DNA from: Candidatus Latescibacterota bacterium
GTDB taxonomy: Bacteria; Latescibacterota; UBA2968; GCA-2709665
Length of the DNA stretch: 64,000 nt
Assembly: GCA_965208835.1 (NCBI GenBank)
Contig: OZ242358.1
Location: 4,608,001 to 4,672,000, forward strand
Direction: 5' to 3'
The notes beneath the pieces were generated by a model that saw only the letters and a program-made list of their open reading frames with translations, had not been told where the DNA came from and ran no database searches. This document shows positions 9,742 through 46,309 of the stretch, piece by piece. Each line of letters starts with the position of its first letter. Position 1 is the first letter of the stretch. A program made the position numbers and the translations under genes.

Positions 9742-10902
9742 ATGAAAATCACGGACGTAAAGGTCCTGCCGATCGACCGGTATCTCTTTGTGGAGGTCCA
9801 TACGGATGAGGGGATCACGGGGCTGGGTGAATCGGGCGCCTGGGGATACCTGGAGGCCTCGGCCGAGGTGGTGAAGAGTTTCAGGGAATACCTGATCGGG
9901 AAGGACCCCCTGCGTATCGAACACCACTGGCAGGTCCTGTACCGGTGTACGCACTTCCGCGGCGCGGCAATCATGGGCGCCCTGAGCGCGGTGGACATCG
10001 CCCTCTGGGATATCGCGGGCAAGTACTTCGGGGTACCGGTCCACCAGTTGCTGGGCGGCAAGTGCCGGGATAAGGCCCGGGTGTACGGGCACGTGATCGG
10101 GAGCACCAAGGAGGAGCTTCTCAAGGGCTGCGTGCAGGCAAAGGCGGAGGGATTTACCGCCGTGGGCCACCTGACGCCGTTTCTGGACGAGTCCCGAAGT
10201 GTACCCTATTACAAGACCCATACGGACAAGATTCAGGATGCCGTTCAGACCGTGGCCGCGTACCGCGAAGCGGTTGGCGACGAGGTGGACCTGTGCATTG
10301 AAATCCACCGCCGGCTGGACCCTGCCGAGGCGATCGTGCTGGGAAGGGCGATCGAACCCTATCGCCCCTTCTTCTACGAAGATCCCATCCGCCCGGACAA
10401 CCTCGACGCCATGGCCGAAGTCGCTCGGAAGATCGCGATACCCATCGCCACCGGGGAACGAATTCACACCATCTACGAGTTCGAAATGCTCCTGACGCGC
10501 AACGCGGTCCAATACGTCAGGCCGGACGTCTGCATGGCGGGCGGCATCACCCATTGCAAGAAGATCGCGGCCCTCGCCGAGGCGCACTACGTGGACGTGG
10601 TGCCGCACAATCCGCTCAGCCCGGTGAGTACGGCCGCGTGCGTTCAGCTTGCGGCGTGCATTCCCAATTTTGCATTGCAGGAGTACCCCAGGGGCGAAGG
10701 CGAACCGCCGAAGAGCGAGATCGTGTCCGGCGTTCTGACGCTGGAAGACGGATTCCTGATCATCCCGGATACCCCCGGTATCGGCGTGGAACTCGCGGAA
10801 GGCGCCGCGGATAAATACCCGTTTCTTTCGCACCGGCCGCTGCTGGATGAAGGGATGATGGTCACCAGGCTACACGTCGACGGGTCAGTGGTCGATCAGT
10901 AG
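9742..10902 (+). CDS. mandelate racemase/muconate-lactonising family sugar-acid dehydratase (galactonate dehydratase-like)
   Basis: MKITDVK..TDEGITGLGE, AVDIALWDIAGK, EIH, YEDP, ATGE, VPHN; ATG 9742 with RBS aaggag. Confidence 0.85.
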   Translation: MKITDVKVLPIDRYLFVEVHTDEGITGLGESGAWGYLEASAEVVKSFREYLIGKDPLRIEHHWQVLYRCTHFRGAAIMGALSAVDIALWDIAGKYFGVPVHQLLGGKCRDKARVYGHVIGSTKEELLKGCVQAKAEGFTAVGHLTPFLDESRSVPYYKTHTDKIQDAVQTVAAYREAVGDEVDLCIEIHRRLDPAEAIVLGRAIEPYRPFFYEDPIRPDNLDAMAEVARKIAIPIATGERIHTIYEFEMLLTRNAVQYVRPDVCMAGGITHCKKIAALAEAHYVDVVPHNPLSPVSTAACVQLAACIPNFALQEYPRGEGEPPKSEIVSGVLTLEDGFLIIPDTPGIGVELAEGAADKYPFLSHRPLLDEGMMVTRLHVDGSVVDQ

Positions 10903-10981
10903 CACGCATCTGAACGTGTGAACTGCGGAAGGTTGAACTTCACCCCGGACACGTGATATCTGATTCACAGGAGGACTCGCC

Positions 10982-11776
10982 ATGCTTGCGGGGATCACCG
11001 ACGAACAGTGGGAGCGGTTCGAGAACGAAGGATTTCTTCGCCTTGGAAAGGTGATGGACGACGACGAACTGGCGGGCCTGCAGCAGCGCATCGATGACAT
11101 CATGCTTGGCAGGGTGAAGGTCCACGATCAAATGTTCATGCAACTGGACAGTGAGTCCGGCGACTACGCGGAGAAGCGGATCACAACGAGAGGACACCAG
11201 GTTTCGACGTTGAACTATCGGAAAATTCAGGATCTGGAGTTCGACCCGCTGTTCCTGGCCTACATGCAGAAACCCGTTTTCCGCGAGATCTGTGCGAGGG
11301 CCTACGGTCCGGAGACGCCGATATCCAGCTATCGCGCCATGTTTATGAACAAGCCAGCGGGCAAGGGCACGCACCTGCCGTGGCACCAGGACCGGTTCAG
11401 CATCCTCGATACCGATCCGATCGTGACCGTATGGACGGCGCTGGACCCGGTGACGGTCGAGAACGGCTGCGTGGGAGTCGTACCGCGATCGCATCGCGCG
11501 ACCTTCGATCAGGATGAGGCCGCCAGCTTCGCCTTCCTGACCGACGAGCAGGCCGCTGTCGTGCTGGCAAGGGAAACGCACGAATACCTGGAGATGGAGG
11601 CGGGGGAAGCGGCCCTGCTGCACAATTGGCTGCTCCACGGATCGGGGATGAACAAAACCGACGCCTCACGGCGCGGGTTCAGCGTCTGCTACATGGACGC
11701 CGTCACCAGATCCGACAACGGTGCGAGCTTCTCGGTCATCTTCGGAGAGGACGCCCTGACTCCCGGGACGCTGTAA
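10982..11776 (+). CDS. phytanoyl-CoA dioxygenase (PhyH) family Fe(II)/2-oxoglutarate dioxygenase
   Basis: WHQD...ENGC...LLHGSG.N...RR facial-triad pattern. Confidence 0.9.
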   Translation: MLAGITDEQWERFENEGFLRLGKVMDDDELAGLQQRIDDIMLGRVKVHDQMFMQLDSESGDYAEKRITTRGHQVSTLNYRKIQDLEFDPLFLAYMQKPVFREICARAYGPETPISSYRAMFMNKPAGKGTHLPWHQDRFSILDTDPIVTVWTALDPVTVENGCVGVVPRSHRATFDQDEAASFAFLTDEQAAVVLARETHEYLEMEAGEAALLHNWLLHGSGMNKTDASRRGFSVCYMDAVTRSDNGASFSVIFGEDALTPGTL

Positions 11777-11812
11777 ACGGCGACACCGACACTTCCGTAC
11801 AGGTACTCACCC

Positions 11813-13828
11813 TTGGAAACCGCAGCCGCGAGAGCCCCGAATCCCCTCCATCCAGTGCCCGGCAATGAGACTGACGCGCGCGACGGCCTGACGCCGCGCG
11901 CGTTCGGTATCGGCCTCGTCCTGTGCGTACTCATGTGCGTTGGCCTCACCTACAACCGCATGATCACACAGGGCTCCTTCATTGGCGGCGGGTACTACAT
12001 GGACAGGGGCGCGCTGATAGTCCTGTTCCTCCTTATCGTGGCCGCCAATCCGCTGCTGGGCGCGATCAGGAGCAGGTTCGCCCTGACGCGCGGCGAACTG
12101 CTCGCCATATACGCCATGTTTCTCATTCTCCTGCCCGCGTGGGTGATGACAAAGCCGGTGATCCTCTATACGACCGGCGTCACCTACCACGCGACGCCGG
12201 AGTTGCGTCACATCGAGGCCGTGCCCCCTCACCTGCTTCCCTGGCTCGTGCCGCAGGGGGAGCGCATCGTAACGGATCTCTACGAAGGTCTGCCGAAGGG
12301 GGGTTCGATCCCGTGGCCGGGATGGGTCCTGCCCCTGTGGAGCTGGGGGTCGTTCCTTATCGTACTCTTCATTGTGCTCATCTGCCTGGGCGTGCTCATG
12401 CGCAGGCAATGGGAGGAACACGAACGGTTCGCGTTCCCTCTGATGCAGGTGCCGCTTGCGATGCTGGAGCCAGGAAGGGGCCGGTTCGCGCCCGTGTTCC
12501 GCAGCCGACTGCTGGCCGCCGGGTTCGCGGTCCCGTCTCTGGTCGGCACCCTTCGCGGGCTCCGGTACTACTTTCCAAACATCCCCGTCATCAACCTGGG
12601 GACACACGTTCGCATCTTCCGCCGGACGATGGTGCTGCCTTTCAAGGTCCACTTTCTTGTGCTCGCGTATTCCTACTTCATCAATCTGGACGTGAGCCTC
12701 AGCCTGTGGGTCATCAACCTGATCACAAAGGTGATTCGCGGTGCGCTGGCGATGGTTGGCGCGGGCCAGACCTGGGGGGTGTCCGGGGTCGTGGGACGTT
12801 ACAGTTCCCAGGGATCCGAGTTTCTGGCGATGATGGGGATGGGGTATATCCTCGCGCTGGCCGCGTACAGCCTCTACGTTGCCAGGGGTCACCTTCGGCA
12901 GGTGTGGGAACGGATACGCGGGCGTGCATCGCATCTGCAGGACGCTGACGAAATCGTGTCATACCGGTCGGCCGTGCTTGGCATTGTTCTGGGCGTAAGT
13001 TATCTTGGTTTGTGGCTCTATCAGGCTGGAATTTCGCCGCCGCTGGTTCTGTTTCTTCTTGTATCCAGTCTCATCGTCTTCTTTGTGATGGCGCGGATTG
13101 TGAGTGAAACGGGATTTGTCGCGACCTATTCTCCCCTCAATCCGTCCGAGTTCGTGGTGTGCGCGGTCGGCTCTTCGGCGTTCGGTCCGGCGGGCCTCGC
13201 CACACTGGGGATCAGCTACGTCTGGACGATGACGCGCAGAAATACGCTGATGCCGCACGCCATGGGCGCGCTTCGGCTGGCGCGCGAAATCGGAAGGAAG
13301 CGCGGGCTTGTCTGGGCAATGGGGGCGGCGCTGGCCGTGGGGCTGGTCGCCACGGGCTACACGACGTTGAATTTAGGGTATACGCACGGCGGCGTGAACA
13401 TCGACTATCCGTGGTTCAGCAACGTGAACGACGCGGCTTCTCCGTTTGACGAATTCATCGGACGCCGGCTGCTCGAGCCCAGCCCTGTCTTCACGGTGGG
13501 TTTTCTCTATACTGCCCTGGGTACCGGAGTTGCCGCCCTGCTGATCCTGCTCAGGATGCGGCTGCCGTGGTGGCCGTTCCATCCGGCCGCGCTGCCGCTC
13601 AGTACGGTGTGGTACATGGACTGGTTCGGTTTCAGCGTGTTCCTGGCGTGGGGAATCAAGGCGATCATCCTGCGGGTGGGCGGGGCGGACCTCTACAGGA
13701 AGGCGCGTCCGTTCTTTATCGGAATGATCCTGGGCGAGGTCATGTGCTCGGGTGGCTGGTCGGTGGTAAGCGCCTTTACAGGAAGGCTGAAAACCTGGCC
13801 GTTCATGGGCTACTGGAGCTCGTCGTAA
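11813..13828 (+). CDS. DUF6785/DUF6784-like multi-pass membrane protein, putative transporter (paralogue 1)
   Basis: Highly hydrophobic; GLT.RAF, RRQWEEHERFAFP, WWPFHP, FLAWGIK, PFFIGMILGE motifs. Confidence 0.8.
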   Translation: METAAARAPNPLHPVPGNETDARDGLTPRAFGIGLVLCVLMCVGLTYNRMITQGSFIGGGYYMDRGALIVLFLLIVAANPLLGAIRSRFALTRGELLAIYAMFLILLPAWVMTKPVILYTTGVTYHATPELRHIEAVPPHLLPWLVPQGERIVTDLYEGLPKGGSIPWPGWVLPLWSWGSFLIVLFIVLICLGVLMRRQWEEHERFAFPLMQVPLAMLEPGRGRFAPVFRSRLLAAGFAVPSLVGTLRGLRYYFPNIPVINLGTHVRIFRRTMVLPFKVHFLVLAYSYFINLDVSLSLWVINLITKVIRGALAMVGAGQTWGVSGVVGRYSSQGSEFLAMMGMGYILALAAYSLYVARGHLRQVWERIRGRASHLQDADEIVSYRSAVLGIVLGVSYLGLWLYQAGISPPLVLFLLVSSLIVFFVMARIVSETGFVATYSPLNPSEFVVCAVGSSAFGPAGLATLGISYVWTMTRRNTLMPHAMGALRLAREIGRKRGLVWAMGAALAVGLVATGYTTLNLGYTHGGVNIDYPWFSNVNDAASPFDEFIGRRLLEPSPVFTVGFLYTALGTGVAALLILLRMRLPWWPFHPAALPLSTVWYMDWFGFSVFLAWGIKAIILRVGGADLYRKARPFFIGMILGEVMCSGGWSVVSAFTGRLKTWPFMGYWSSS

Positions 13829-36343: not shown

Positions 36344-37474
36344 ATGGAGCGTTTCGGACAGCTCGAGCTGGACTACCTGGCGAAAGTGATCGCCAGCGGC
36401 ACGCTGAATAGCAAGACAGGGAAATTCACGACACGACTGGAGGAGCGATTCGCAGAGTGGGTGGGGGCGGAATACGCTGTGGCGATGAACAGTGCGATGA
36501 GCGTGCTGCACACGGCTGTGGCCGCGGCCGGTGTTGGACCTGGCGTGGAAGTCGCTTGCGATCCCGTGGTCCACTTCGGCGGCGCGGCGGTGATGTATCA
36601 CAACGGGGTGCCTGTATTCTGCGACATCGATGAGGACAGCTGGAATATGGACCCCGATTCGCTTGAGGCGTGCATCACGGAACACACGGGCGCCGTCATC
36701 TGCACGCCGATGTGGGGAAACCCCCCGGATTACGACGGGATTCTCCGGGTGGCAGACAGATACGGGCTTCCCGTGATCGAAGACGTGGCGCACGGTGTCG
36801 GGGGATCTTACAGAGGCAGGCCCCTGGGAACGCTGGGGTCGATCGGTTCATACAGTTTTCAGGAGGCCAAACATCTCACCAGCGGAGACGGCGGCATGGC
36901 GGTGACCAACCGGGCCGACATGGTCGAGAAAATGCTGGAAATGAGAATCATCAAGACGACCCTTGGCTGGAATTACCGCATGACCGAACTGCAGGCCGGG
37001 GTGATGCTGGCGCAGATGGACAGGGCCGACGGGATTATCTCCGCGCACCACAAGGCGGGTGCGCTCTACCGCGAAGCCGCCAGGGAGACGCCGTGGCTGG
37101 TGCCGCAGCGCGTGGCGGATGGGTGCGTCAACGCGTATCACGCGGTCGCGTTCCGATTCGAAGGCGATCGCGAGGGCATTTCGGTGGAGCGTTTTCAAAA
37201 AACCATGGTCGCACACGGATGTCCGGTTTCGATCGGGTACAAGCGACGTTCCGCCGCCGAAGATCCTATATTCACGGAGGTCCTGGCGTACGGCAAGGGG
37301 TGCCCCATCCGGTGCCCCCATTACAAGGGCCGCGCGCGCTACGGAAAGGGCGTGACGCCGGTGGCCGATCGCGCGGTGCCGCGGATGGTCGTGATGCCGA
37401 TGGACGTGTATACACCCGGGAAGACTGAGGAATATTCGGAGATGATCCGCGCGGGACTGAAGGCGCTCGCGTAG
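36344..37474 (+). CDS. DegT/DnrJ/EryC1/StrS family PLP aminotransferase
   Basis: IEDVAH, SFQEAKHLTSGDGG (PLP Lys), GWNYRMTELQA; RBS aaggagg. Confidence 0.92.
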   Translation: MERFGQLELDYLAKVIASGTLNSKTGKFTTRLEERFAEWVGAEYAVAMNSAMSVLHTAVAAAGVGPGVEVACDPVVHFGGAAVMYHNGVPVFCDIDEDSWNMDPDSLEACITEHTGAVICTPMWGNPPDYDGILRVADRYGLPVIEDVAHGVGGSYRGRPLGTLGSIGSYSFQEAKHLTSGDGGMAVTNRADMVEKMLEMRIIKTTLGWNYRMTELQAGVMLAQMDRADGIISAHHKAGALYREAARETPWLVPQRVADGCVNAYHAVAFRFEGDREGISVERFQKTMVAHGCPVSIGYKRRSAAEDPIFTEVLAYGKGCPIRCPHYKGRARYGKGVTPVADRAVPRMVVMPMDVYTPGKTEEYSEMIRAGLKALA

Positions 37475-37549
37475 AAGACGATCGTCACCGGGAAATGCGC
37501 ACGGTTGATCTGAATTGCCCGGAAATGCGGCTGGAGAGAGCGGGAGGGT

Positions 37550-38437
37550 TCAATGCCCGTGCTGCGCTTCCGTTCCATGAACGGCAGAGGATTCGACGAA
37601 GTAGAGGCCGTAGGCGAGAGCGATTCCCACGAGAAGGGATGCGATGAGTTTGCCGCGGTCGTGACTGTGGAATTGGATTTCGGGCAGCAGATCGCTCAGC
37701 GCAATGCACAGAAACACGCCAGCGGCAAACGCAAGCACATAGCCGATGACCGAGCCGTCGTCCTGGCCGAGCAGCCCCGCGCCCCAGAAACTGGCAAGAG
37801 CGACCAGCGGGCACAGCAAGGCAAAAGCGGTGTTGGCCGCCGCTCGCGCGCGCGCGCTGTATCCCCCGAACTTCATCATCCCGATGATGGAGTAAGCATC
37901 GAGCGGCTTGTGAAGAAGGATGGCGAGGAATACGCCGAGGGCGGGCAACGCGCCTCCGTCTTCGTGAGGCGAGCTGATCCGCATACTGGTACCCAGGGCG
38001 ACGCCTTCGGTTACGGTATGCACGCCCAGGCCCATGGCAACCCCAACCAGACTGCCCGAGTGCGCGCCGGAGTTTCCGTGGTCACGATGCTCGTACAGCT
38101 TGCCGGCTTCAGTGCTGAAGTCGTGCTGATGGAAATGAAAGACGCGGAGCAGAAAAATCATCAGGATCATGCCGAAAACCACCCACGCGACGGCTTTCTC
38201 CACGTTTCCCGGTCCGGAAATCCGTTCGAGACTGTGTGGCAAGAGGTGGTACATGGCGATGCCGAGGATAAAACCCGCTACGAGGCTCATCAGTATTTGA
38301 ATCTTGGTGTGGGTCATGGATCCCAGAACCGCCAGTTTCCCGCCGGCAAAGGAAACTGCGAAGATGCCCAGTGAATATCCCGTTATGATGAGCAGACTGT
38401 CTGAATCCACGATGACCCGACCTTGGATTGGCTTCAT
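37550..38437 (-). CDS. ZIP family metal transporter
   Basis: HLLPHS, His-rich loop HFHQH..HRDH, HTVTEG, ILLHKPLD, FAAGVFLCIALSDLLPE; start uncertain. Confidence 0.88.
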   Translation of the reverse strand: MKPIQGRVIVDSDSLLIITGYSLGIFAVSFAGGKLAVLGSMTHTKIQILMSLVAGFILGIAMYHLLPHSLERISGPGNVEKAVAWVVFGMILMIFLLRVFHFHQHDFSTEAGKLYEHRDHGNSGAHSGSLVGVAMGLGVHTVTEGVALGTSMRISSPHEDGGALPALGVFLAILLHKPLDAYSIIGMMKFGGYSARARAAANTAFALLCPLVALASFWGAGLLGQDDGSVIGYVLAFAAGVFLCIALSDLLPEIQFHSHDRGKLIASLLVGIALAYGLYFVESSAVHGTEAQHGH

Positions 38438-38646
38438 CCCGTCCTGTTCAACACCTGTGGACGACGTTCCCTGACGTGAGCGAGTGTTGCGTCGAATTCC
38501 AGGTGGCATGCACATTCGCAACTGTTCGGTAGATCGGCCAACCGATCGAGCAAAGCGCTGAACCACGGGAATTTTTCAGGGGCAACCCCACTTCCCGCGC
38601 TGGGCCGCCCCCTTACGACTATTGTCCTTTTTCGACCCCAGGCGAC

Positions 38647-39135
38647 TCAGAAGAAAAGCATGAGGAGCAGGATACTGCTCAGCCCGCCCAGCATAAACCC
38701 GCCTATGCTGACCGCGCCCGAGAACAATGAATAGTCGGCGATCCGAAACGTCTGTCCGCCCAGTGTGAAGAGCACCTGGCTGCGGGTGATCTCACCGTCG
38801 ACGAATCGCTTGAGCCCCTCCTCGGCGCTGTGGGCCTCCTTTACGGAGACCATGGCCACCAGAATCATCGTCAGCGCGGATGCAAGGGTCCCCAGTGCAA
38901 ATATGAGCAACGTTCCCAGGGCCACCCAGTGGTACGCGGCGTCTTCGTTTCCTGAAGGCGAACTCATGAATCCGATTATCAGCGCCGCACCGCCGGCATT
39001 GCCGAGCAGCATGAGTCTGGCCGATTCGGTGATCAGCCTGAACATCGTGCCGCGCCGCATGTGGACAACCTTGTAGAGTTCGCGCAACCACTCTTCGCCG
39101 ACTTCCTCAGCGGAAAATTCGTCCACCTTTTTCAA
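38647..39135 (-). CDS. hypothetical membrane protein (about 3 TM segments)
   Basis: 162-aa ORF starting 3 bp after the SBP gene, with ggag just upstream; LLGNAGGAAL helix. Confidence 0.7.
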   Translation of the reverse strand: MKKVDEFSAEEVGEEWLRELYKVVHMRRGTMFRLITESARLMLLGNAGGAALIIGFMSSPSGNEDAAYHWVALGTLLIFALGTLASALTMILVAMVSVKEAHSAEEGLKRFVDGEITRSQVLFTLGGQTFRIADYSLFSGAVSIGGFMLGGLSSILLLMLFF

Positions 39136-39138
39136 CGG

Positions 39139-40293
39139 TCAATCTCCTCCGAGATCGATCAACCGGACGTAGTGCGAACCCGTGTTGGTTCCAGGCTCGA
39201 AGGCGAGCGTCCAATCGTCAATCGCTACCGGTCCGGACGACAATGCCTGCTGCAGAAAATGCTCCCGAGTCATTGTCTCGCCCATTCGCTCCAGTACCTC
39301 GATGACGAAGCGACCCAGGATGTATCCCTCCAGGGACACCTCGTTGACGCCGTATTTCCCGTCGTCTGCGCCGTTTACCGCATCCACGGCCTCCAGCGCA
39401 CGATGAAAGCTTGTGACCACCCGCATGCCGGCGTCGTCTGCATCGGGCACCACTTCGGAGACCAGTATTCTGTCGTTCGGCGCATCGATCCTTTTCTTCA
39501 ACTCGTAGGACAGAACGAAAGACAGATTGGCCATTATGTATCTGTGGCCGAGAGAGTGCGCCAGATTGATAATTTCAGAGTTGGACGCATACGCGCCGAC
39601 GATCATGATAGCGTCCAGGTCGGCTTTGGCCAGGGCGAACAGACTGGCCTGGACGGCATGTGTGTTTCGAGAGAACGCGGTTTTCGCCAGAATGGGAATG
39701 CCCTTGCCGTCGAGAACCGACTTGTAGTTCGTCAGGACGGAACGCCCGAACGCGTCGTCCTGATAGATGATGCCGAACCGCTTTTTACCTCTCTTCCTCA
39801 GAATGTGGTTTACCAGAACGCGGGTCTCGTCCAGATAGCCTGCTCGCAGGTTGACGACGTTCGGGAACCGCCTTGCGTTGCGCAGGAACGCCGCGCCGGT
39901 AAAGGGTCCCACAAAGGGAATCTTCGCTGTCTTCAACACCGGAGCAATGCGTTTCGCCGTTGGCGTACCCACACCGCCGATAACGGCGAAAACGTCGTCC
40001 TCCGAAACGAATCGTTCCGCATTGGCGGCCGCAAGATCGGGCTCGTAGGCGTCGTCGAGGGAAATCAGCTTCAGCGTTCTGCCGTTAACGCCGCCGCTGC
40101 GGTTCGCTTCGAGAAGGGCCGCGCGAATACCGGCCCGGTAGTTGAGTCCCAATTGTCTGTTCGGCCCGGAGAAACAGGCGCTCTGACCGAAAACAATCGT
40201 CGTACCGCTGACACCTTTTGCCGCATGGGACGTCGCGACAGGCAGCAGGGCGAGCCAGGATGCCAATAGCCCACTGATGATGTATGCCGCCAT
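39139..40293 (-). CDS. periplasmic substrate-binding protein, type I (LivJ/Peripla_BP_6-like)
   Basis: Signal peptide, GQSA.FSGP, N.SGGVNGR..LISLDDAYEP, VGTPT, NLRAGY, YQDDAFG, SLEGY. Confidence 0.88.
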   Translation of the reverse strand: MAAYIISGLLASWLALLPVATSHAAKGVSGTTIVFGQSACFSGPNRQLGLNYRAGIRAALLEANRSGGVNGRTLKLISLDDAYEPDLAAANAERFVSEDDVFAVIGGVGTPTAKRIAPVLKTAKIPFVGPFTGAAFLRNARRFPNVVNLRAGYLDETRVLVNHILRKRGKKRFGIIYQDDAFGRSVLTNYKSVLDGKGIPILAKTAFSRNTHAVQASLFALAKADLDAIMIVGAYASNSEIINLAHSLGHRYIMANLSFVLSYELKKRIDAPNDRILVSEVVPDADDAGMRVVTSFHRALEAVDAVNGADDGKYGVNEVSLEGYILGRFVIEVLERMGETMTREHFLQQALSSGPVAIDDWTLAFEPGTNTGSHYVRLIDLGGD

Positions 40294-40323
40294 TCGCTAC
40301 CCTCTTCCCGAGGCGTGTCAGAT

Positions 40324-41778
40324 CTACTCCGACGAGGCGCCAGCCTCCCCCGTCTTTCCCGATTTGTCGGCAGCCGCTTCCTGCTTCCCCTGCTTGACGT
40401 CGGCCTTCGTTTTCTTCCCCTGTCTGGCCCCTTCCTTCTTCCTGGACGGGGCGACGGACTCTGCTTTCTTCCCGGATTTGACGCCGGGCGTTGCCTGCGT
40501 CGCCGGCTTGCCATCCTCCTCGGGGAGTACCTCCACCATGGGCTTTTCCTGCTCCTGCCGGCTGAATCGTTTGCCACGCGCGACGTGGCTATGGGAGAAT
40601 ATCGAAGGTGTGTCGAATATGAGCGACCGGGGGTTGGCCACGTCCAGGTGATCGCGCTCCGCGCGCACTCTGTGAAATTGGCCGTCCAGCGTGAGTCTGT
40701 CCTCATCGACGTTTTCTATCTTATGTACATCGGGCATTTGCGTTGACGATAACGCCATCCTGCCGGCCGCCGCGCCGGTTCCTGTGGGCGGCTCCGCCAG
40801 CGCCAGGTCCGCCGGCGTAAATCCATCGCCGACGCCGTCTATCATGTTAATGTCGATGGCCGACTGATTGGCCGGGTTGACCGCCGCCAGGCTCGCTTCG
40901 GAGAAGATCTTCCGCATGCGATCCCAGTAGCGCGTGATACGTACGTGCGACGGCTGTTTCCTGTATTCGCCCAGCAGCGCGGAGAACGCTTCGGCGCTGC
41001 TTTTGGCCTGCACGACGCGTTCTCCTGCCCTGGCTCTTGCCTCCAATACGAGCGCTTCGGCCTGTCCCCGGCTGCGCGCAATCAGCTGCTCCTTCTGTCG
41101 GTTCGCGTCGCTTACCGCTTTCACCCGCTCTGCAAATGCGTCGCTGACGTCCCGAAACGCGGCGATGGTTTCCTCGATGGGGCGCACGTCGACGATGTCG
41201 AGCGAGACGAGCTCTATGCCTATGTCGCGGTAATCAAGCCAGGCGGTAATCCTGTCGAACAGCCTGCTTTGAATGATGTTCCGATTCGATGTCAGAATCA
41301 GGTCGATGAAATTCTCACCGAGGACGTCGATAAGTTCTTCTCTGGTGTAAACGGTCAACATCGCGATCGGATCGCTGGAGACGAACAGGAAATCTCCGAG
41401 ATTACCGATCCGGTACTGAAGCGCGACGTCCACTTCAAGCAGATTCACGTCGCCGGATAATATCGTGAAGTTGACCTTGTTGCCTTCCCTGCTGGAAACC
41501 TGGTATCGGGTAACCCGCTTGACCTTGCGGATGTATACCTTGTCGATTACCGGAATGCAATAGCGTATTCCGGGCCGGACGTTGTCGTTTGCTAACCTTC
41601 CGAACCGGAGGACGACGCCATGTTCTTCCTTCTTCACGATGTAAAATCCGCTGGCCAGGATGCACACGAGAACCGCAGCTACAGTCCTGAGCAAGATTCG
41701 CCGCTGGTGTTTCGAAAAATAATCGAACACGGCGTAGATGATCCGCGTACTCGGCGGCAATGATGTCGGTTCACTCAT
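40324..41778 (-). CDS. HflK-like SPFH/band-7 protein with a long C-terminal extension
   Basis: One TM, SGFYIV..EHGVVLRFG, PG..Y..P, LSGD.NL, QYRI, AFRDV..A, ARSRGQA. Confidence 0.85.
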   Translation of the reverse strand: MSEPTSLPPSTRIIYAVFDYFSKHQRRILLRTVAAVLVCILASGFYIVKKEEHGVVLRFGRLANDNVRPGIRYCIPVIDKVYIRKVKRVTRYQVSSREGNKVNFTILSGDVNLLEVDVALQYRIGNLGDFLFVSSDPIAMLTVYTREELIDVLGENFIDLILTSNRNIIQSRLFDRITAWLDYRDIGIELVSLDIVDVRPIEETIAAFRDVSDAFAERVKAVSDANRQKEQLIARSRGQAEALVLEARARAGERVVQAKSSAEAFSALLGEYRKQPSHVRITRYWDRMRKIFSEASLAAVNPANQSAIDINMIDGVGDGFTPADLALAEPPTGTGAAAGRMALSSTQMPDVHKIENVDEDRLTLDGQFHRVRAERDHLDVANPRSLIFDTPSIFSHSHVARGKRFSRQEQEKPMVEVLPEEDGKPATQATPGVKSGKKAESVAPSRKKEGARQGKKTKADVKQGKQEAAADKSGKTGEAGASSE

Positions 41779-41796
41779 TTCGTACGGGCTCCCGGT

Positions 41797-42687
41797 CTAT
41801 CGGGGCGTGGTCCTGCTGTTGAGGTATTTGAACAGCTCGTTGTCGGCCGGCAGCATCAACGTCGTGTTCCGGTCGATGATCAGGTCGTAGCTGTCCAGCG
41901 CACGGATGAAGCTGTAGAACTCCGGGTCCTGCCGGTATGCCTTGCCCAGCACCGCCATGGCCTCGGCCTCGGCCTTGCCGAGAATGGCGGTTGCTTCCGC
42001 ATGGGCGTCGGCCAGCAGCTTTTCGTGTTCGTTAATGGCCAGGGCCTCGATACGCAGCGCCATTTCCTCGCCCTCGCTGCGATACCGCGCGGCAATACGG
42101 GCCCGTTCCGCGATCATGCGCCGAATGACGCTCGGTCGGTTCTCCGTGGGCAGCGTGTATTCCACGATTCCCGCTTCGATGACCTCGATGCCGTAGCTCT
42201 CTCTGGCAATTGGCGCGATTCTGGCGTGTATTTCACGCGAAGCCTCGTTCAGGTCTTCGTGTTCCAGCCCCAACCCGATAAAGGCGTCGAGAGCCTTGTT
42301 GCTGATGATGATCCCGCTGCTGGACAGATAGAGGTCCTGCAAGCGCTCAACGGCGTTCTTCCCGGTGCGAATCGCCTCGACGAACAAAATGGGGTCCACC
42401 GTCCGCCAGAGCAGGTACCCGTCGACGCGTACGCTTTTCTGATCGTCGGTGATCAGTTCGTGAGGCATGTCGGTCAACGTATGAATACGCCGGTCCACCT
42501 TGTAAATCCTGGAGATCGGCCGAGGCCACTTCAGGTGTAACCCCGGTTGTCTCACCGGCGCCGAAATCCTGCCGAAGTGAGTCAATACGCCCTGCTGGGT
42601 TTCGTGGATAATATAGATGCTGTCGTAGACGATTGCACCGACGATCACAACGAGGGCGGCGGTCATCGTGGCTTTTTTGAGCGTCAT
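41797..42687 (-). CDS. HflC-like SPFH protein
   Basis: One TM, V.T.FG, PGLHLKWP, LITDDQKSV.VD, RMIAER.RIAARYRSEG, AYRQDPEFYSFIRALDSY. Confidence 0.9.
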   Translation of the reverse strand: MTLKKATMTAALVVIVGAIVYDSIYIIHETQQGVLTHFGRISAPVRQPGLHLKWPRPISRIYKVDRRIHTLTDMPHELITDDQKSVRVDGYLLWRTVDPILFVEAIRTGKNAVERLQDLYLSSSGIIISNKALDAFIGLGLEHEDLNEASREIHARIAPIARESYGIEVIEAGIVEYTLPTENRPSVIRRMIAERARIAARYRSEGEEMALRIEALAINEHEKLLADAHAEATAILGKAEAEAMAVLGKAYRQDPEFYSFIRALDSYDLIIDRNTTLMLPADNELFKYLNSRTTPR

Positions 42688-42838
42688 TAGCTTTACCTCG
42701 TCGGGAAGGGCGTAAAGGTCGCGTGCGTGAGGTCGGCCCGCTGACCCGATGTTATTCTGATCTATCGGCCGCCATCAGATTGGCGTGGTTTCCGGCGATC
42801 CGTACGGAATATGGATTGCGTGCCGGAAATTACCGCGT

Positions 42839-45139
42839 TCACTTTCTTGCGGCCTTTTTCTTGTGGCCCGACGGCGCGCCATGGTTTGATTCGCCGGTCC
42901 TTTTCTTCCACAGCGCGACCTTTTCAAGGCTTTTCTTGTTGGGAACGATTATCTTGGGATTGCCGGCCAACGCCGTCTCCAGTTTTTCCCGCCAGAGCAT
43001 GTTCCTGAGAACGCCAGGCGCGGTTCTGACGGCCCTGGATACCGTGGAAATGGCATCGGCCTCAGCGGCAGACGTCTTCACTTTCCGATAGGCCTCGCCG
43101 TCGGCCTGTTGCACCTCCCACGCCGCGTTTCCGTGCGCCTGTGGCACCAGCGATACAAGGAAGCGCTGTGCATTGACGATAATCCGCTCCCGGTCTTCCT
43201 GGGCGCTGGAAACGTCCCGGAAAGCACTCATGGTTTCCGCCACGGGACTGACACCCAGCAGGTTGACCTTGACGACTTCAACTGTTTTCAGTACCGGATT
43301 CGAGAGATGCAGGTCCCCGTCGAAGTACTTGGTGATATGATCTTCAAGCGTTGCGCGATGCACGTTCAGCAATTTTTCAAGGCCCCGGGCGGAAACGAAG
43401 GAACGCACGTGGGCCTTGACGAAGTCGGAAATGACATTCTGCGGATCCTCCGTGCGATAATGATAGACGTAGGGGTCCTTGACCCGGTATTGCACGTTGA
43501 CGGTGAGGGAAATCAGATTGAGGTCGCCCGACACGTATTCTTCAGGCGTTTCGCACAGAATGGACTTCACTTCCCTGACCGGCCATTTGTCGACTTTGAC
43601 GAAGGGCCAGGGGGCGAGATAGCTCAACCCAGGCTGAATGTCACGCCAGTAGACCTCACCCATAAGCCGGCCGTAGCCCACCGAATCGGGGGGTATGGTT
43701 GTGAATCCGCTGGCCAGGAACAGGAGGAGGAGAAACCCCCAAAACATCTTTCCCAGTGGCGTGGCGGGAGAAAACATCCCCCTGAAGCTTCGCTTGCGCG
43801 TCAGGCGCTCCCAGACCTGACCCCAGGACTTTGCAAGGGGCCGCACGTTGAGAAGCAGATCCTCCCAGCCACTGCGGAGCGCGCCCGCGCGGAAACGCCA
43901 GACTATAAGAGCAATGAGAACCAGCGCGGAGCCCCACTGCAGGAACTGTATCGTCGGCGACTCGGACGGGCCGAGGTACACCGGAATCGTCAGACCCGTG
44001 GCCAGGAGCAGCGCGTCGATCACAATGCCGAGAGCGACTGTGACCGCGATGACCGCAGCTACGTAAATGGTTGCGAAGCGGGCGCCGAACTGGCTGACGA
44101 TGATTGCGATCGTACCGGTGTTGGTGGCCGGCCCGGTCATTAGAAAAATCAGCGCCGCGCCGGGGCTGAATCCCTTGGCAACGAGGGCTGCGGCGATCGG
44201 CGTACTGGCCGATGCGCAGATATAGAGGGGAACGCCGACAAGCACCATCACGGGATAGGAGACCCAGCGGGCATATTCGTTTGTCATCAGGTCGCCCGGT
44301 ATCACCAGGAAGAGTACTCCGCCCAGGGCCACGCCAACCAGAAGCGCAAAGAGGATATCGTCCGCAATCTCCACGAATCCGTAGTGAAAGACATGCTTCA
44401 CGAGCCTTTTAAAGTCGAGCGCGGGACCCTCCGCGGGCTTGTCTCCCGGGGAAGCCTTTCCGGCCTCCTCAGCCTCCAGCGCGTCACGGTAGAACGCCGG
44501 TTTCACCCAGGAAAGGGACTTCCAGCGTCCTGCGACCGTGACGACGCTCTTCAGCCATTGTAAGAAAAGCCCCTTCAATCTCGAAAAGCTGACGTAGCAG
44601 TCGTCAGTTTCCGGAATCAGGGGTTCGTGACAACCGTGATCGTGGTCGTGATCGTGCCCATGGCCATGGTCGTGGTCGTGTTCATCGTGGCCATGGTCCG
44701 ACACGGTTTCTTCGTGGCCGTTACGTATCAGACCGATACAAAAGATGCCGGCGACGACGGCGGTGATGAAGCTGATTACCGGACGGACGACCGCGGCAAT
44801 AAAACCGAAGAAGGCGTTTGTGACCAGAATCGAGTCCGCACCCGTCTCCGGTGCGGTTATCAGGAAGGACATGCAGGACGATCGGGATGCGCCCTTCCTG
44901 CGCATCTCGGCAACCACGGGCACAACGGAACAACTGCACAGCGGCACGGGTACGCCCACGGCCGAACTCACGGCAACGGATTTCAGGCTGTCGTCCTTGA
45001 GCCACCTGAGGATGGCCTCGCGGGAAATAAATACATGGATCAGCCCCGAAAGGAACAGCCCCAGCAACAGCATTGGCGCCAGGAGTAATCCGGACATCCA
45101 GAGAAAATCGAAGAAACTGAACAGCGTCTGCTGTACCAC
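42839..45139 (-). CDS. ArsP/DUF318 (SO_0444-like) metal permease with a His-rich loop, fused to a C-terminal HflK-like SPFH domain
   Basis: PLCSCSVVP, FLITAPETGADS, YICASASTP, GAALIFLMTGPATN; HGHDEHDHDHGHGHDHDHDH loop; C-terminal PG....PWP, SGDLNL, VQYRV, AFRDVSSAQED; GTG start with RBS ggagg. Confidence 0.88.
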   Translation of the reverse strand: MVQQTLFSFFDFLWMSGLLLAPMLLLGLFLSGLIHVFISREAILRWLKDDSLKSVAVSSAVGVPVPLCSCSVVPVVAEMRRKGASRSSCMSFLITAPETGADSILVTNAFFGFIAAVVRPVISFITAVVAGIFCIGLIRNGHEETVSDHGHDEHDHDHGHGHDHDHDHGCHEPLIPETDDCYVSFSRLKGLFLQWLKSVVTVAGRWKSLSWVKPAFYRDALEAEEAGKASPGDKPAEGPALDFKRLVKHVFHYGFVEIADDILFALLVGVALGGVLFLVIPGDLMTNEYARWVSYPVMVLVGVPLYICASASTPIAAALVAKGFSPGAALIFLMTGPATNTGTIAIIVSQFGARFATIYVAAVIAVTVALGIVIDALLLATGLTIPVYLGPSESPTIQFLQWGSALVLIALIVWRFRAGALRSGWEDLLLNVRPLAKSWGQVWERLTRKRSFRGMFSPATPLGKMFWGFLLLLFLASGFTTIPPDSVGYGRLMGEVYWRDIQPGLSYLAPWPFVKVDKWPVREVKSILCETPEEYVSGDLNLISLTVNVQYRVKDPYVYHYRTEDPQNVISDFVKAHVRSFVSARGLEKLLNVHRATLEDHITKYFDGDLHLSNPVLKTVEVVKVNLLGVSPVAETMSAFRDVSSAQEDRERIIVNAQRFLVSLVPQAHGNAAWEVQQADGEAYRKVKTSAAEADAISTVSRAVRTAPGVLRNMLWREKLETALAGNPKIIVPNKKSLEKVALWKKRTGESNHGAPSGHKKKAARK

Positions 45140-45299
45140 TCAATTGCCTCCAGTGCATTGGATGATTCGAATCTTCACCTGGAAGGCATCTCAGAAACAG
45201 AAAACGAACGGCGCCGCAAACCACGCCAGACACGACGCTGTGCCGACCGTCAGTTTCGCCGTCACAATAGTCCGATTCACTTCAGGGATCGGAGCGGAA

Positions 45300-45328
45300 A
45301 TGATACTGACTATCAGATATTAAATCAA
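45300..45328 (-). promoter_or_regulatory. sigma70-type promoter overlapped by a Fur-family operator
   Basis: Minus strand TTGATT, 17 bp, TATCAT; palindrome TGATACT-G-ACTATCA at 45301-45315 matches 12 of 14 positions of the Fur 7-1-7 core TGATAAT-N-ATTATCA. Confidence 0.7.
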
Positions 45329-45520
45329 GCACTATATATGTACTAAATATATACTAATACGTGTATTCCATCACCTCGACAAGGGGTCGATATCCGCCTG
45401 GAAAAACGTCGTTTTGGCCGCCCTGACCGAACAGCGGCGTCAGGCCGTTCGCAGCGACGAATCACGCTCCAGGCTGAGCGCTGCCTGGGGCAACGCTCGA
45501 CGTCGGTACAGCGTTTGTTT

Positions 45521-46309
45521 TCAGGGCCTGGAAGGACCGGGGTCGCGGTCGGTCCGGCCCGTACTCCTGACATAGCGCGGGCGGTTGTGTACGGGACGGA
45601 ATCCGACCCTCCTGTAGACCCTTTCGGCGGCGCTGCCGGCCACCACTTCGAGGCCGGTCCATCGATTTCCCATCGAATGTGAATCAACCACCGCGCGGGC
45701 GGTCACGGCGGACGCGACCCCTCTGCGGCGGTATTGAGGCAGCGTACCGATAAAGTCGACACAACCCAAACCGTATTTGGAGTAAAGCAAAGCGGTTCCC
45801 GCAGGCTCGCGATTCAAGTACGCGAGGTAGAGACGGACTTCCGGTATATCCAGAACCCGTCGTCCAATGGCGCCCACGGCGGCCGGAAAGTCAAAGCTGC
45901 GACACATGGTTGTTGCCCAGACTTCGTACCGTCCCGGATCGAGTTCCTCGACCTCAACGGCTTTGGAGCAAGAGGGCCGGACGTCCCGGTCGCAGAGCAT
46001 CGCCACGGCCTGTAAATCAAACGCGAATCCACGTCTTTTCAGCCGTTCGGCCAGATCAGCGGGGCGGTCCAGCGGCGACAGGGTGAACGCACAATCGAAG
46101 TTTCTTTCCGTGAAATGGGCGAGGGCACGGTCGATCATTGGGTCCACCATTGAATCGGGCACGTCAATCTGTACGACGCGATGCAGCATGGGCACTTTGA
46201 CGCTCTTCTTGCTGAATGCGGTAGCCCCGTCCAGGTCGTGGCTATCGCACCAGCTTGCCCGGAACCCGATCCAGAGTTTTTCGAATGTTGTCGTGAATTG
46301 GTCAGACAT
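45521..46309 (-). CDS. GNAT family N-acetyltransferase
   Basis: GTLPQYRRRGVA acetyl-CoA motif, AERVYRRVGF; ATG 46309 chosen as start. Confidence 0.85.
   Translation of the reverse strand: MSDQFTTTFEKLWIGFRASWCDSHDLDGATAFSKKSVKVPMLHRVVQIDVPDSMVDPMIDRALAHFTERNFDCAFTLSPLDRPADLAERLKRRGFAFDLQAVAMLCDRDVRPSCSKAVEVEELDPGRYEVWATTMCRSFDFPAAVGAIGRRVLDIPEVRLYLAYLNREPAGTALLYSKYGLGCVDFIGTLPQYRRRGVASAVTARAVVDSHSMGNRWTGLEVVAGSAAERVYRRVGFRPVHNRPRYVRSTGRTDRDPGPSRP

Follow-up and report, generated by a model that had tools for sequence, protein, structure and literature searches.

HflK and HflC modulate FtsH, which is, to our knowledge, the sole well-defined client of the bacterial SPFH assemblies (HflK/C, stomatin and flotillin). 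The Escherichia coli HflK/HflC-FtsH complex (7vhp, 7wi3, 9cz1, 9cz2) is built on two kinds of SPFH subunit, each with an N-terminal membrane helix. In Pseudomonas aeruginosa, PA2439-PA2434 encode PaFlo5, PaFlo6, PaFlo7, PA2436, the P-type ATPase HmtA and PA2434 (PMC4542158, PMC11761036, PMC8531726, PMC13086221), are induced by zinc depletion (table in PMC4542158; PMC11761036) and have a promoter that Zur binds in a gel shift (PMC8531726); a 2026 study gives this SPFH trio as horizontally acquired, with mild deletion phenotypes (PMC13086221). Here we describe a six-gene cassette in a 64,000-nucleotide stretch of DNA from a Candidatus Latescibacterota bacterium (assembly GCA_965208835.1, contig OZ242358.1, positions 4,608,001 to 4,672,000; hereafter the window), in which a metal permease and an HflK-like SPFH domain are parts of a single protein. 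The genes of the cassette are:

42839 to 45139, minus strand: fusion of an SO_0444/ArsP_1-type metal permease to an HflK-like SPFH domain (766 amino acids; matches to family models).
41797 to 42687, minus strand: HflC-like SPFH protein (296 amino acids; TIGR01932 match).
40324 to 41778, minus strand: second HflK-like SPFH protein (484 amino acids; TIGR01933 score just under the cut-off).
39139 to 40293, minus strand: secreted type-I periplasmic binding protein (Peripla_BP_6; signal-peptide-like N-terminus).
38647 to 39135, minus strand: small membrane protein of no known family (162 amino acids; three long helices).
37550 to 38566 (open reading frame as listed), minus strand: ZIP-family metal transporter (Pfam Zip; likely start at 38437).

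This run had been proposed in an initial annotation of the window, and all six open reading frames and their families were recovered at 37550-45139. On recount the gaps from the HflC-like gene through the small-protein gene were again 18, 30 and 3 bp, with an intergenic gap of 151 bp between the fusion and the HflC-like gene, and the SPFH genes run K-type/C-type/K-type, the fusion being the first K-type. The three SPFH domains and two His-rich metal transporters given there were also found. No ftsH or ABC gene lies within the six-gene run, and family-model scans returned no P-type ATPase match among the six cassette proteins.

Compared with the E. coli complex, with which it shares HflK- and HflC-type subunits and their N-terminal membrane helices, the cassette has three subunits and not two, one of them fused to a transporter, has no linked ftsH, and brings in a binding protein and a small membrane protein. 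PA2439-PA2434, likened to the cassette by published description and not by sequence, appears on that basis to be its nearest described relative: three SPFH genes and a metal transporter share one operon in both, whereas the P. aeruginosa transporter is a separate P1B-type ATPase and not a fused SO_0444 permease. Shewanella oneidensis SO_0444 is matched by the cassette permease in a family score above the cut-off and in the CSC motif, yet SO_0444 is unfused and stands beside a ZntR-like regulator (PMC3219624), whereas the cassette permease is joined to an SPFH domain, has a Fur-like site at its promoter and has no MerR gene nearby. Transporter class, covalent fusion and, apparently, the two extra genes set the cassette apart from the P. 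aeruginosa locus. A literature search, with supplementary gene tables outside its reach, found no description of a permease-SPFH fusion and no paper on SPFH together with DUF318, and a paper on SPFH evolution (PMC2636767) makes no mention of permease, transporter, zinc or fused. The suggestion that this is a new system has to be narrowed, because a Zur-controlled SPFH trio with HmtA has already been published for P. aeruginosa.

We favor, at slightly better than even confidence, an accessory, horizontally spread cassette for a divalent metal (most likely zinc), with a permease tied to an SPFH ring of its own. Its core would be an SO_0444/ArsP_1 secondary permease paired with the ZIP transporter, between which an optional module, consisting of the fused SPFH part, the HflC-type and HflK-type proteins, the binding protein and the small membrane protein, is located. 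The three SPFH proteins may build an HflK/HflC-like ring or dome on the periplasmic face, apart from housekeeping HflKC-FtsH; the permease would be physically tied to this ring through the fusion, and because the second HflK-type subunit bears no permease, each ring would hold fewer of them. On this view the two accessory proteins, the binding protein and the small membrane one, would belong to the ring, as components or as clients, and not to the transporter.

The fusion carries both halves of this proposal. Its permease part scored 317 bits (cut-off 300) over residues 20-414 with NF033936, the SO_0444 copper/zinc efflux family, and matched Pfam ArsP_1. The CSC motif (C68-S69-C70), given as the SO_0444 family signature in a preprint (bioRxiv 10.1101/2022.07.06.499078), was invariant in two family alignments (23 sequences; 40 sequences). 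The SPFH part matched Band_7 at residues 501-657 and the hflK model at 497-737 (129.6 bits), and residues 470-735 aligned with residues 88-346 of solved E. coli HflK (7vhp_E; E 2e-15). Between the permease (residues 1 to ~420) and the SPFH and coiled-coil region (~470-766) lie a basic linker and one transmembrane helix. We read the topology by hand from the distribution of Lys and Arg: permease loops 39-54 and 78-88 are both basic, which suggests that the CSC segment may fold as a re-entrant hairpin. The cytoplasm would contain the His/Asp loop, the 170-250 region and the basic linker (416-455); one helix after the linker would then lead to an SPFH domain on the outer side of the cytoplasmic membrane, the arrangement known from HflK. 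The His-rich loop of the fusion is an (H/D)n run at about residues 148-170. Many contigs from four sequencing runs break or diverge at ~44630-44700, where this His/Asp repeat loop is encoded; loop length differs among family members, the tract being a length-polymorphic (HD)n.

Fusions of this build are widespread. A search with the SPFH part of the fusion returned 235 proteins (E up to 1e-5). Among the 120 matches listed, the precomputed Pfam annotation shows ArsP_1 together with Band_7 for 114, whose identity over the SPFH part is 58-100%, so that the covalent joining of a permease to an HflK-type subunit, as first proposed, is a property of a family. For the neighborhood we surveyed the best 80 loci of 249 relatives from a scan of species-representative genomes. 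Their hosts, all represented by metagenome-assembled genomes (MAGs), belong to Latescibacterota, Gemmatimonadota, Terriglobia/Bryobacterales, several orders of Gammaproteobacteria, Alphaproteobacteria, Opitutales, Dadabacteria, Binatia, Nitrospinota, Spirochaetia and others. The core of fusion, HflC-like, HflK-like, binding-protein and small-protein genes was colinear on one strand in 73/75 evaluable loci (those with at least 4.3 kb downstream), which establishes the conservation of the gene set and rules out a chance juxtaposition of genes; median identities of the five across loci were 67, 76, 55, 62 and 69%. The ZIP gene is variable (same strand, 39 of the 80 loci; opposite strand, 7; not found, 27; not evaluable, 7). 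Of the two exceptions to colinearity, L051 has a fusion that ends at residue 628 with the ZIP gene directly after it, and L077, from an Opitutales MAG (10001-13193), gave no HflC-like match at 40% identity or above. The tblastn match of the fusion in L077 extends to 13193, which may point to a rearrangement or fusion of the SPFH genes at that locus. Because the fusion is 59-91% identical across phyla in unrelated flanks, these comparisons indicate that the cassette has spread horizontally.

The cassette trio is extra to the housekeeping proteins of its genome. Seven Band_7 matches occur in the 5.18 Mb of this genome (one contig): the three of the cassette, one flotillin-like, one stomatin-like and an adjacent pair, the last being a separate canonical hflK-hflC locus far from the cassette (271.7 bits for hflK, 222.6 bits for hflC). 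Identity to this pair is 33% for the C-type protein, 31% for the K-type protein and 28% for the fusion, and the two cassette K-types are 25% identical to each other. The HflC-like protein scored above threshold (TIGR01932, 160.6 bits; cut-off 134.4), and the second HflK-like protein has a long C-terminal tail with a conserved motif near residues 365-396. When placed in a phylogeny with housekeeping HflKC (35 rows), the three cassette families formed three tight, long-stemmed clades within the HflC and HflK groups (SH-aLRT 99-100); this was a quick maximum-likelihood search, in which the two K-type clades join each other as long branches, a pattern that calls for caution. The same data bear on whether the SPFH trio is instead a dedicated FtsH adaptor, through which the permease would be held by the protease for metal-dependent turnover and not in a chamber or on a scaffold. 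The trio is homologous to HflK and HflC, the HflK of a solved FtsH complex can be aligned with the fusion's SPFH part, the genome has one FtsH (its sole full-length match, ~2.4 Mb from the window), and HflKC is a known FtsH modulator. Yet no ftsH accompanies the cassette in the window, and the cassette proteins, at 28-33% identity to the housekeeping pair, lie on long branches of their own. We regard an adaptor role as improbable.

Which parts belong to the ring and which to the transporter could be read from relatives in which the SPFH module is absent or deleted, namely 5/14 congeners and many sister-genus genomes; the other nine congeners have a full-length fusion, and these five give truncated matches. 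Thirteen loci with short or broken permease genes were fetched for comparison. None of the 13 retained the HflC-like, HflK-like or small-protein gene, a fragment of the binding-protein gene was left in 2/13 (L109 and L110), and the ZIP gene adjoined the permease in 12/13. In L109 and L110 the fusion is kept to residue 558 and is followed by binding-protein residues 225-302, an arrangement that reads as a deletion scar, while several sister-genus loci have the order OEP-CzcB-CzcA-permease-ZIP or a subset of it. Permease and ZIP are the persistent pair, and the SPFH part, both SPFH genes and the binding-protein and small-protein genes come and go together. This joint presence and absence is our main reason for placing the binding protein, like the small membrane protein, with the ring rather than with the transporter.

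The assignment matters for a second alternative, a binding-protein-dependent secondary importer of TRAP/TTT build to which the SPFH ring was added as a scaffold. TRAP transporters (SiaPQM, 8b01) combine a large permease, a small membrane protein and a periplasmic binding protein, and the cassette, too, encodes a secreted binding protein and a small membrane protein beside its permease. All of the best structural matches to the permease model have the two hairpins of elevator-type carriers: ArsB (Z 8.5, 260 residues aligned, root-mean-square deviation (rmsd) 5.5), VcINDY (Z 8.2), the TRAP protein SiaQM (Z 8.0, 263 residues aligned, rmsd 5.1, a weak match at the level of the fold) and YdaH (Z 7.9), with CNT and SLC13 carriers at Z 6.5-7.0; the helix pattern of the model also contains an internal repeat (helices 72-141 and 313-381). 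Values of Z below ~13 for helical bundles may, however, mean a shared arrangement alone, and the model is itself of low confidence. The binding protein belongs to Peripla_BP_6 (162 bits), the LivJ/urea type, and not to the DctP or TctC type of TRAP and TTT systems, its best solved relative being 4kv7 (E 9e-42). The binding and small proteins are, moreover, inherited with the SPFH genes and not with the permease: 13/13 SPFH-less relatives lack the small-protein gene and have lost the binding-protein gene or keep a fragment of it while the permease stays, and in a close relative position 39221 runs straight on to 40294 within a 7.4-kb contig (run X12, record 1), so that nearly the whole binding-protein gene (39222-40293) is missing and the genes on either side are kept. 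An importer of this build therefore seems quite unlikely to us, and the same losses in the 13 relatives make a tripartite transporter independent of the ring unlikely.

The small membrane protein matched no Pfam family (best E 0.0025 among the 38 members scanned). It has three long helices and a conserved cytoplasmic N-terminus, and its model (predicted local distance difference test score (pLDDT) 75) resembles generic helical bundles alone (top Z 11.0). A predicted complex of the permease domain with the small membrane protein, run without controls, scored 0.00. The ZIP protein scored 70.7 bits with Pfam Zip (PF02535; gathering threshold 35.1) and 25.6 bits with the ZupT equivalog, which calls for 252. 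It has a His-rich loop (HFHQHD...HRDHGNSGAH), and M44, at 38437, is probably where translation really starts, since alignments with orthologues begin only near residue 44-55.

Genes within 10 kb of the 80 loci tie the cassette to metals, in agreement with the initial annotation: zinc or heavy-metal genes adjoin it in other genomes. An RND pump of the CusA/CzcA type (at least 44% identity; TIGR00914, representative 1133 bits) lies near 24/80 loci and in 7 of these 24 ends at most 250 nt upstream on the same strand, and a CzcB-type adaptor lies near 38/80. A ZnuA/AztC-like zinc-binding protein is encoded near 15/80 loci (directly upstream on the same strand in 12) and a Zur homologue near 6/80, the order in L064, L066, L070 and L076 being zur, divergent znuA and then the cassette. 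SO_0444 mutants of S. oneidensis are sensitive to zinc and copper (PMC3219624). Since metal neighbors and this stress phenotype point the same way, zinc or a similar divalent metal is the likely substrate.

These neighbors also bear on the direction of transport. The cassette might be a plain zinc/copper efflux determinant, whose permease exports metal to the periplasm for CzcCBA while the SPFH proteins merely stabilize it. CzcCBA efflux genes are as frequent among the neighbors as ZnuA, the permease scores above the cut-off of a family known from an efflux-type phenotype (SO_0444 being needed under zinc or copper stress; PMC3219624), and CzcA/OEP genes stand directly upstream of the unfused permease in 5/7 sister-genus loci (L103-L108, L102), as CzcA-type genes do for the fusion in the seven loci above. 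The most constant partner of the permease is nevertheless ZIP, usually an importer; 12 loci have ZnuA immediately upstream and 4 to 6 have Zur next to the cassette, no MerR/ZntR-type activator stands beside the window cassette, its promoter carries a repressor-type Fur-like site, and the analogous P. aeruginosa operon is switched on when zinc is short. Plain efflux seems to us less likely than not. As to the conditions of use of the cassette, which the initial annotation took to be metal capture, delivery or storage under limitation, we put uptake or retention of metal together with ZIP under metal shortage at a little less than an even chance, efflux feeding CzcCBA-type pumps at about one chance in three, and leave what remains to other uses.

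The initial annotation had further called the operon metal-regulated on account of a Fur box in its promoter. The control region and the comparison sites elsewhere in the genome are:

45300 to 45328, minus strand: sigma-70-like promoter, TTGATT-17-TATCAT (9/12 hexamer matches; the best promoter-like site).
45301 to 45315, minus strand: Fur-like imperfect palindrome TGATAGTCAGTATCA, overlapping the spacer and the -10 hexamer (12/14 consensus positions).
45333 to 45353, minus strand: AT-rich palindrome TATATATTTA-G-TACATATATA, directly upstream of the -35 hexamer (10-nt arms, 90% complementary).
L096, 1290 to 1316 and 1965 to 1990: likely Fur boxes upstream of fur and of a TonB-dependent receptor.
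L097, 360 to 385: candidate Zur box upstream of the aztC-zur-zigA cluster.

Scored against what we take to be the 7-1-7 Fur consensus (14 fixed positions), TGATAGTCAGTATCA is the genome's only intergenic site within 2 mismatches (5.18 Mb), a second such site genome-wide lying inside a coding frame. The Fur-like motif is thus really present and unusual, as a putative operator, and by the letters of its half-sites it might be called Fur-like and not Zur-like. The hexamers TTGACT and TAT(C/T)AT are conserved in nine aligned congener loci. The proposed metal regulation has this one site behind it and is put in doubt by the left half of the site, which varies among the nine congeners (TGATA, CGATA, TTATA, CGATG, CAATA and others). 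The genome's own likely Fur boxes, which read TGATAATGAG..., differ in spacing from the cassette site. The genome has both regulators: a Fur-like gene (L096 1324-1875) adjoins one for a TonB-dependent siderophore receptor, the upstream boxes being TGATAATGAGTTATCA and TGATAATGAGCACTCATTATCA, and a Zur-like gene (L097 1402-1908) lies between aztC and zigA, with the candidate box GCGTAATCATGACGC upstream. A genome-wide search gave no second good copy of either promoter palindrome, and for that reason we draw no regulon in this genome.

The 5' leader (45140-45300) is ~160 nt long, and its last 60 nt, which hold a short hairpin (CGCCTTCCAGGCG in most congeners) and then a GGAGG ribosome-binding site, are conserved among congeners; ~90 nt of the mid-leader are missing in two of them. 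An Rfam scan of 37000-46000 (E up to 1) gave no match, so that the long leader is not a known riboswitch.

Inverted repeats related to TATATATTTA-G-TACATATATA (ACTATAT...ATATAGT) are present in congeners, and in one sister-genus genome (G030) a similar palindrome, AGACGATATATCGTCT, stands upstream of the cassette. In the form (A/G)GACGATATATCGTC(T/C), it gave 55 matches per strand in G030 at up to 3 mismatches, compared with 17 for the reversed control. The copies are often paired and intergenic, ~100-250 nt upstream of diverse genes (for example G030:C1 1657752, 3306300, 1071298 and 5087969). No metal gene was found among 10 annotated genes downstream of the palindrome or divergent from it; they include a sigma-54 activator, LacI- and AraC-type regulators, a sugar epimerase, a leucine-rich-repeat protein, a sulfatase-modifying-like protein and proteins of no family. 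We therefore rejected the palindrome as a Zur/Fur operator and do not count it as evidence of metal control; a global regulator of that lineage probably binds it.

Together with the variable half-site, the different spacing of the genome's own Fur boxes and the single copies of both promoter palindromes, which tell against the Fur-like site, several observations weigh against the divalent-metal cassette with its own SPFH ring. Both K-type parts (157.4 bits and, for the fusion, 129.6 bits) miss the hflK equivalog cut-off of 159.4. The binding protein is of an amino-acid/urea-binding family with no known metal link, not of a metal-binding type, and the flanks of the cassette in the window (GNAT, epimerase, DegT aminotransferase) are unrelated to metals. 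Neighbors for efflux (CzcCBA) and for uptake (ZnuA, Zur) both occur and conflict as to direction, the permease model has a mean pLDDT of 62 and a predicted template modeling score of 0.56, and the SPFH module, missing in many relatives, is not needed for the permease to persist. Ring assembly, periplasmic topology, metal and expression conditions are, moreover, inferred.

The divalent-metal cassette with an SPFH ring would bear on the long-standing question of what SPFH assemblies do for the proteins that they surround, in that its client is bound to the cage by a peptide bond, and two cage subunits and two accessory proteins are kept with it across many phyla. The natural ring-less forms in sister genomes (permease plus ZIP, as in L103-L107) provide the same transporter with and without a ring, a ready comparison that can be read out simply, as metal content or as growth when metal is short or in excess. 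The Zur-controlled SPFH trio next to HmtA in P. aeruginosa, so far unexplained, can be read in the same light. At its most ambitious, the ring would be a fixed scaffold for an elevator permease, and its dome would enclose the binding protein in a private chamber where metal, or a metal-amino-acid complex, could be handed among binding protein, permease and ZIP and be kept apart from the bulk periplasm. We hold this to be a long shot. If true, it would represent a new build of binding-protein-dependent transporter and the first defined non-protease client of a bacterial HflK/C-type cage.

Pseudomonadales (401 genomes) were also searched with the HflC-like protein at E 1e-45, which is too strict a threshold to catch a trio of the P. 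aeruginosa type and leaves the result uninformative on such trios; 2/401 matched, including G061, the genome that had prompted the choice of this order.

Two plasmids carry SPFH genes beside other transporters. On an Aquibium oceanicum plasmid (NZ_CP018172.1; L100 5367-14056), HflK-HflC-HflK precede genes for peptidylprolyl isomerase and for a heavy-metal P-type ATPase, after which come PCu(A)C and SCO copper chaperones. The annotated K-C-K order is that of the cassette, whereas the Aquibium proteins are 38-41% identical to canonical HflK/HflC and 26-35% identical to the cassette proteins. On a mobilizable plasmid of Vibrio parahaemolyticus (NZ_CP013250.1; L101 4937-8324), hflK, hflC and nhaA overlap by 4 bases each, and the SPFH pair is apparently coupled to the ion transporter NhaA.

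No RNA run was listed among the sequencing runs that hold the cassette. Contigs of a 'sponge metagenome' run (X6) tile the whole stretch with ~1-3% differences.

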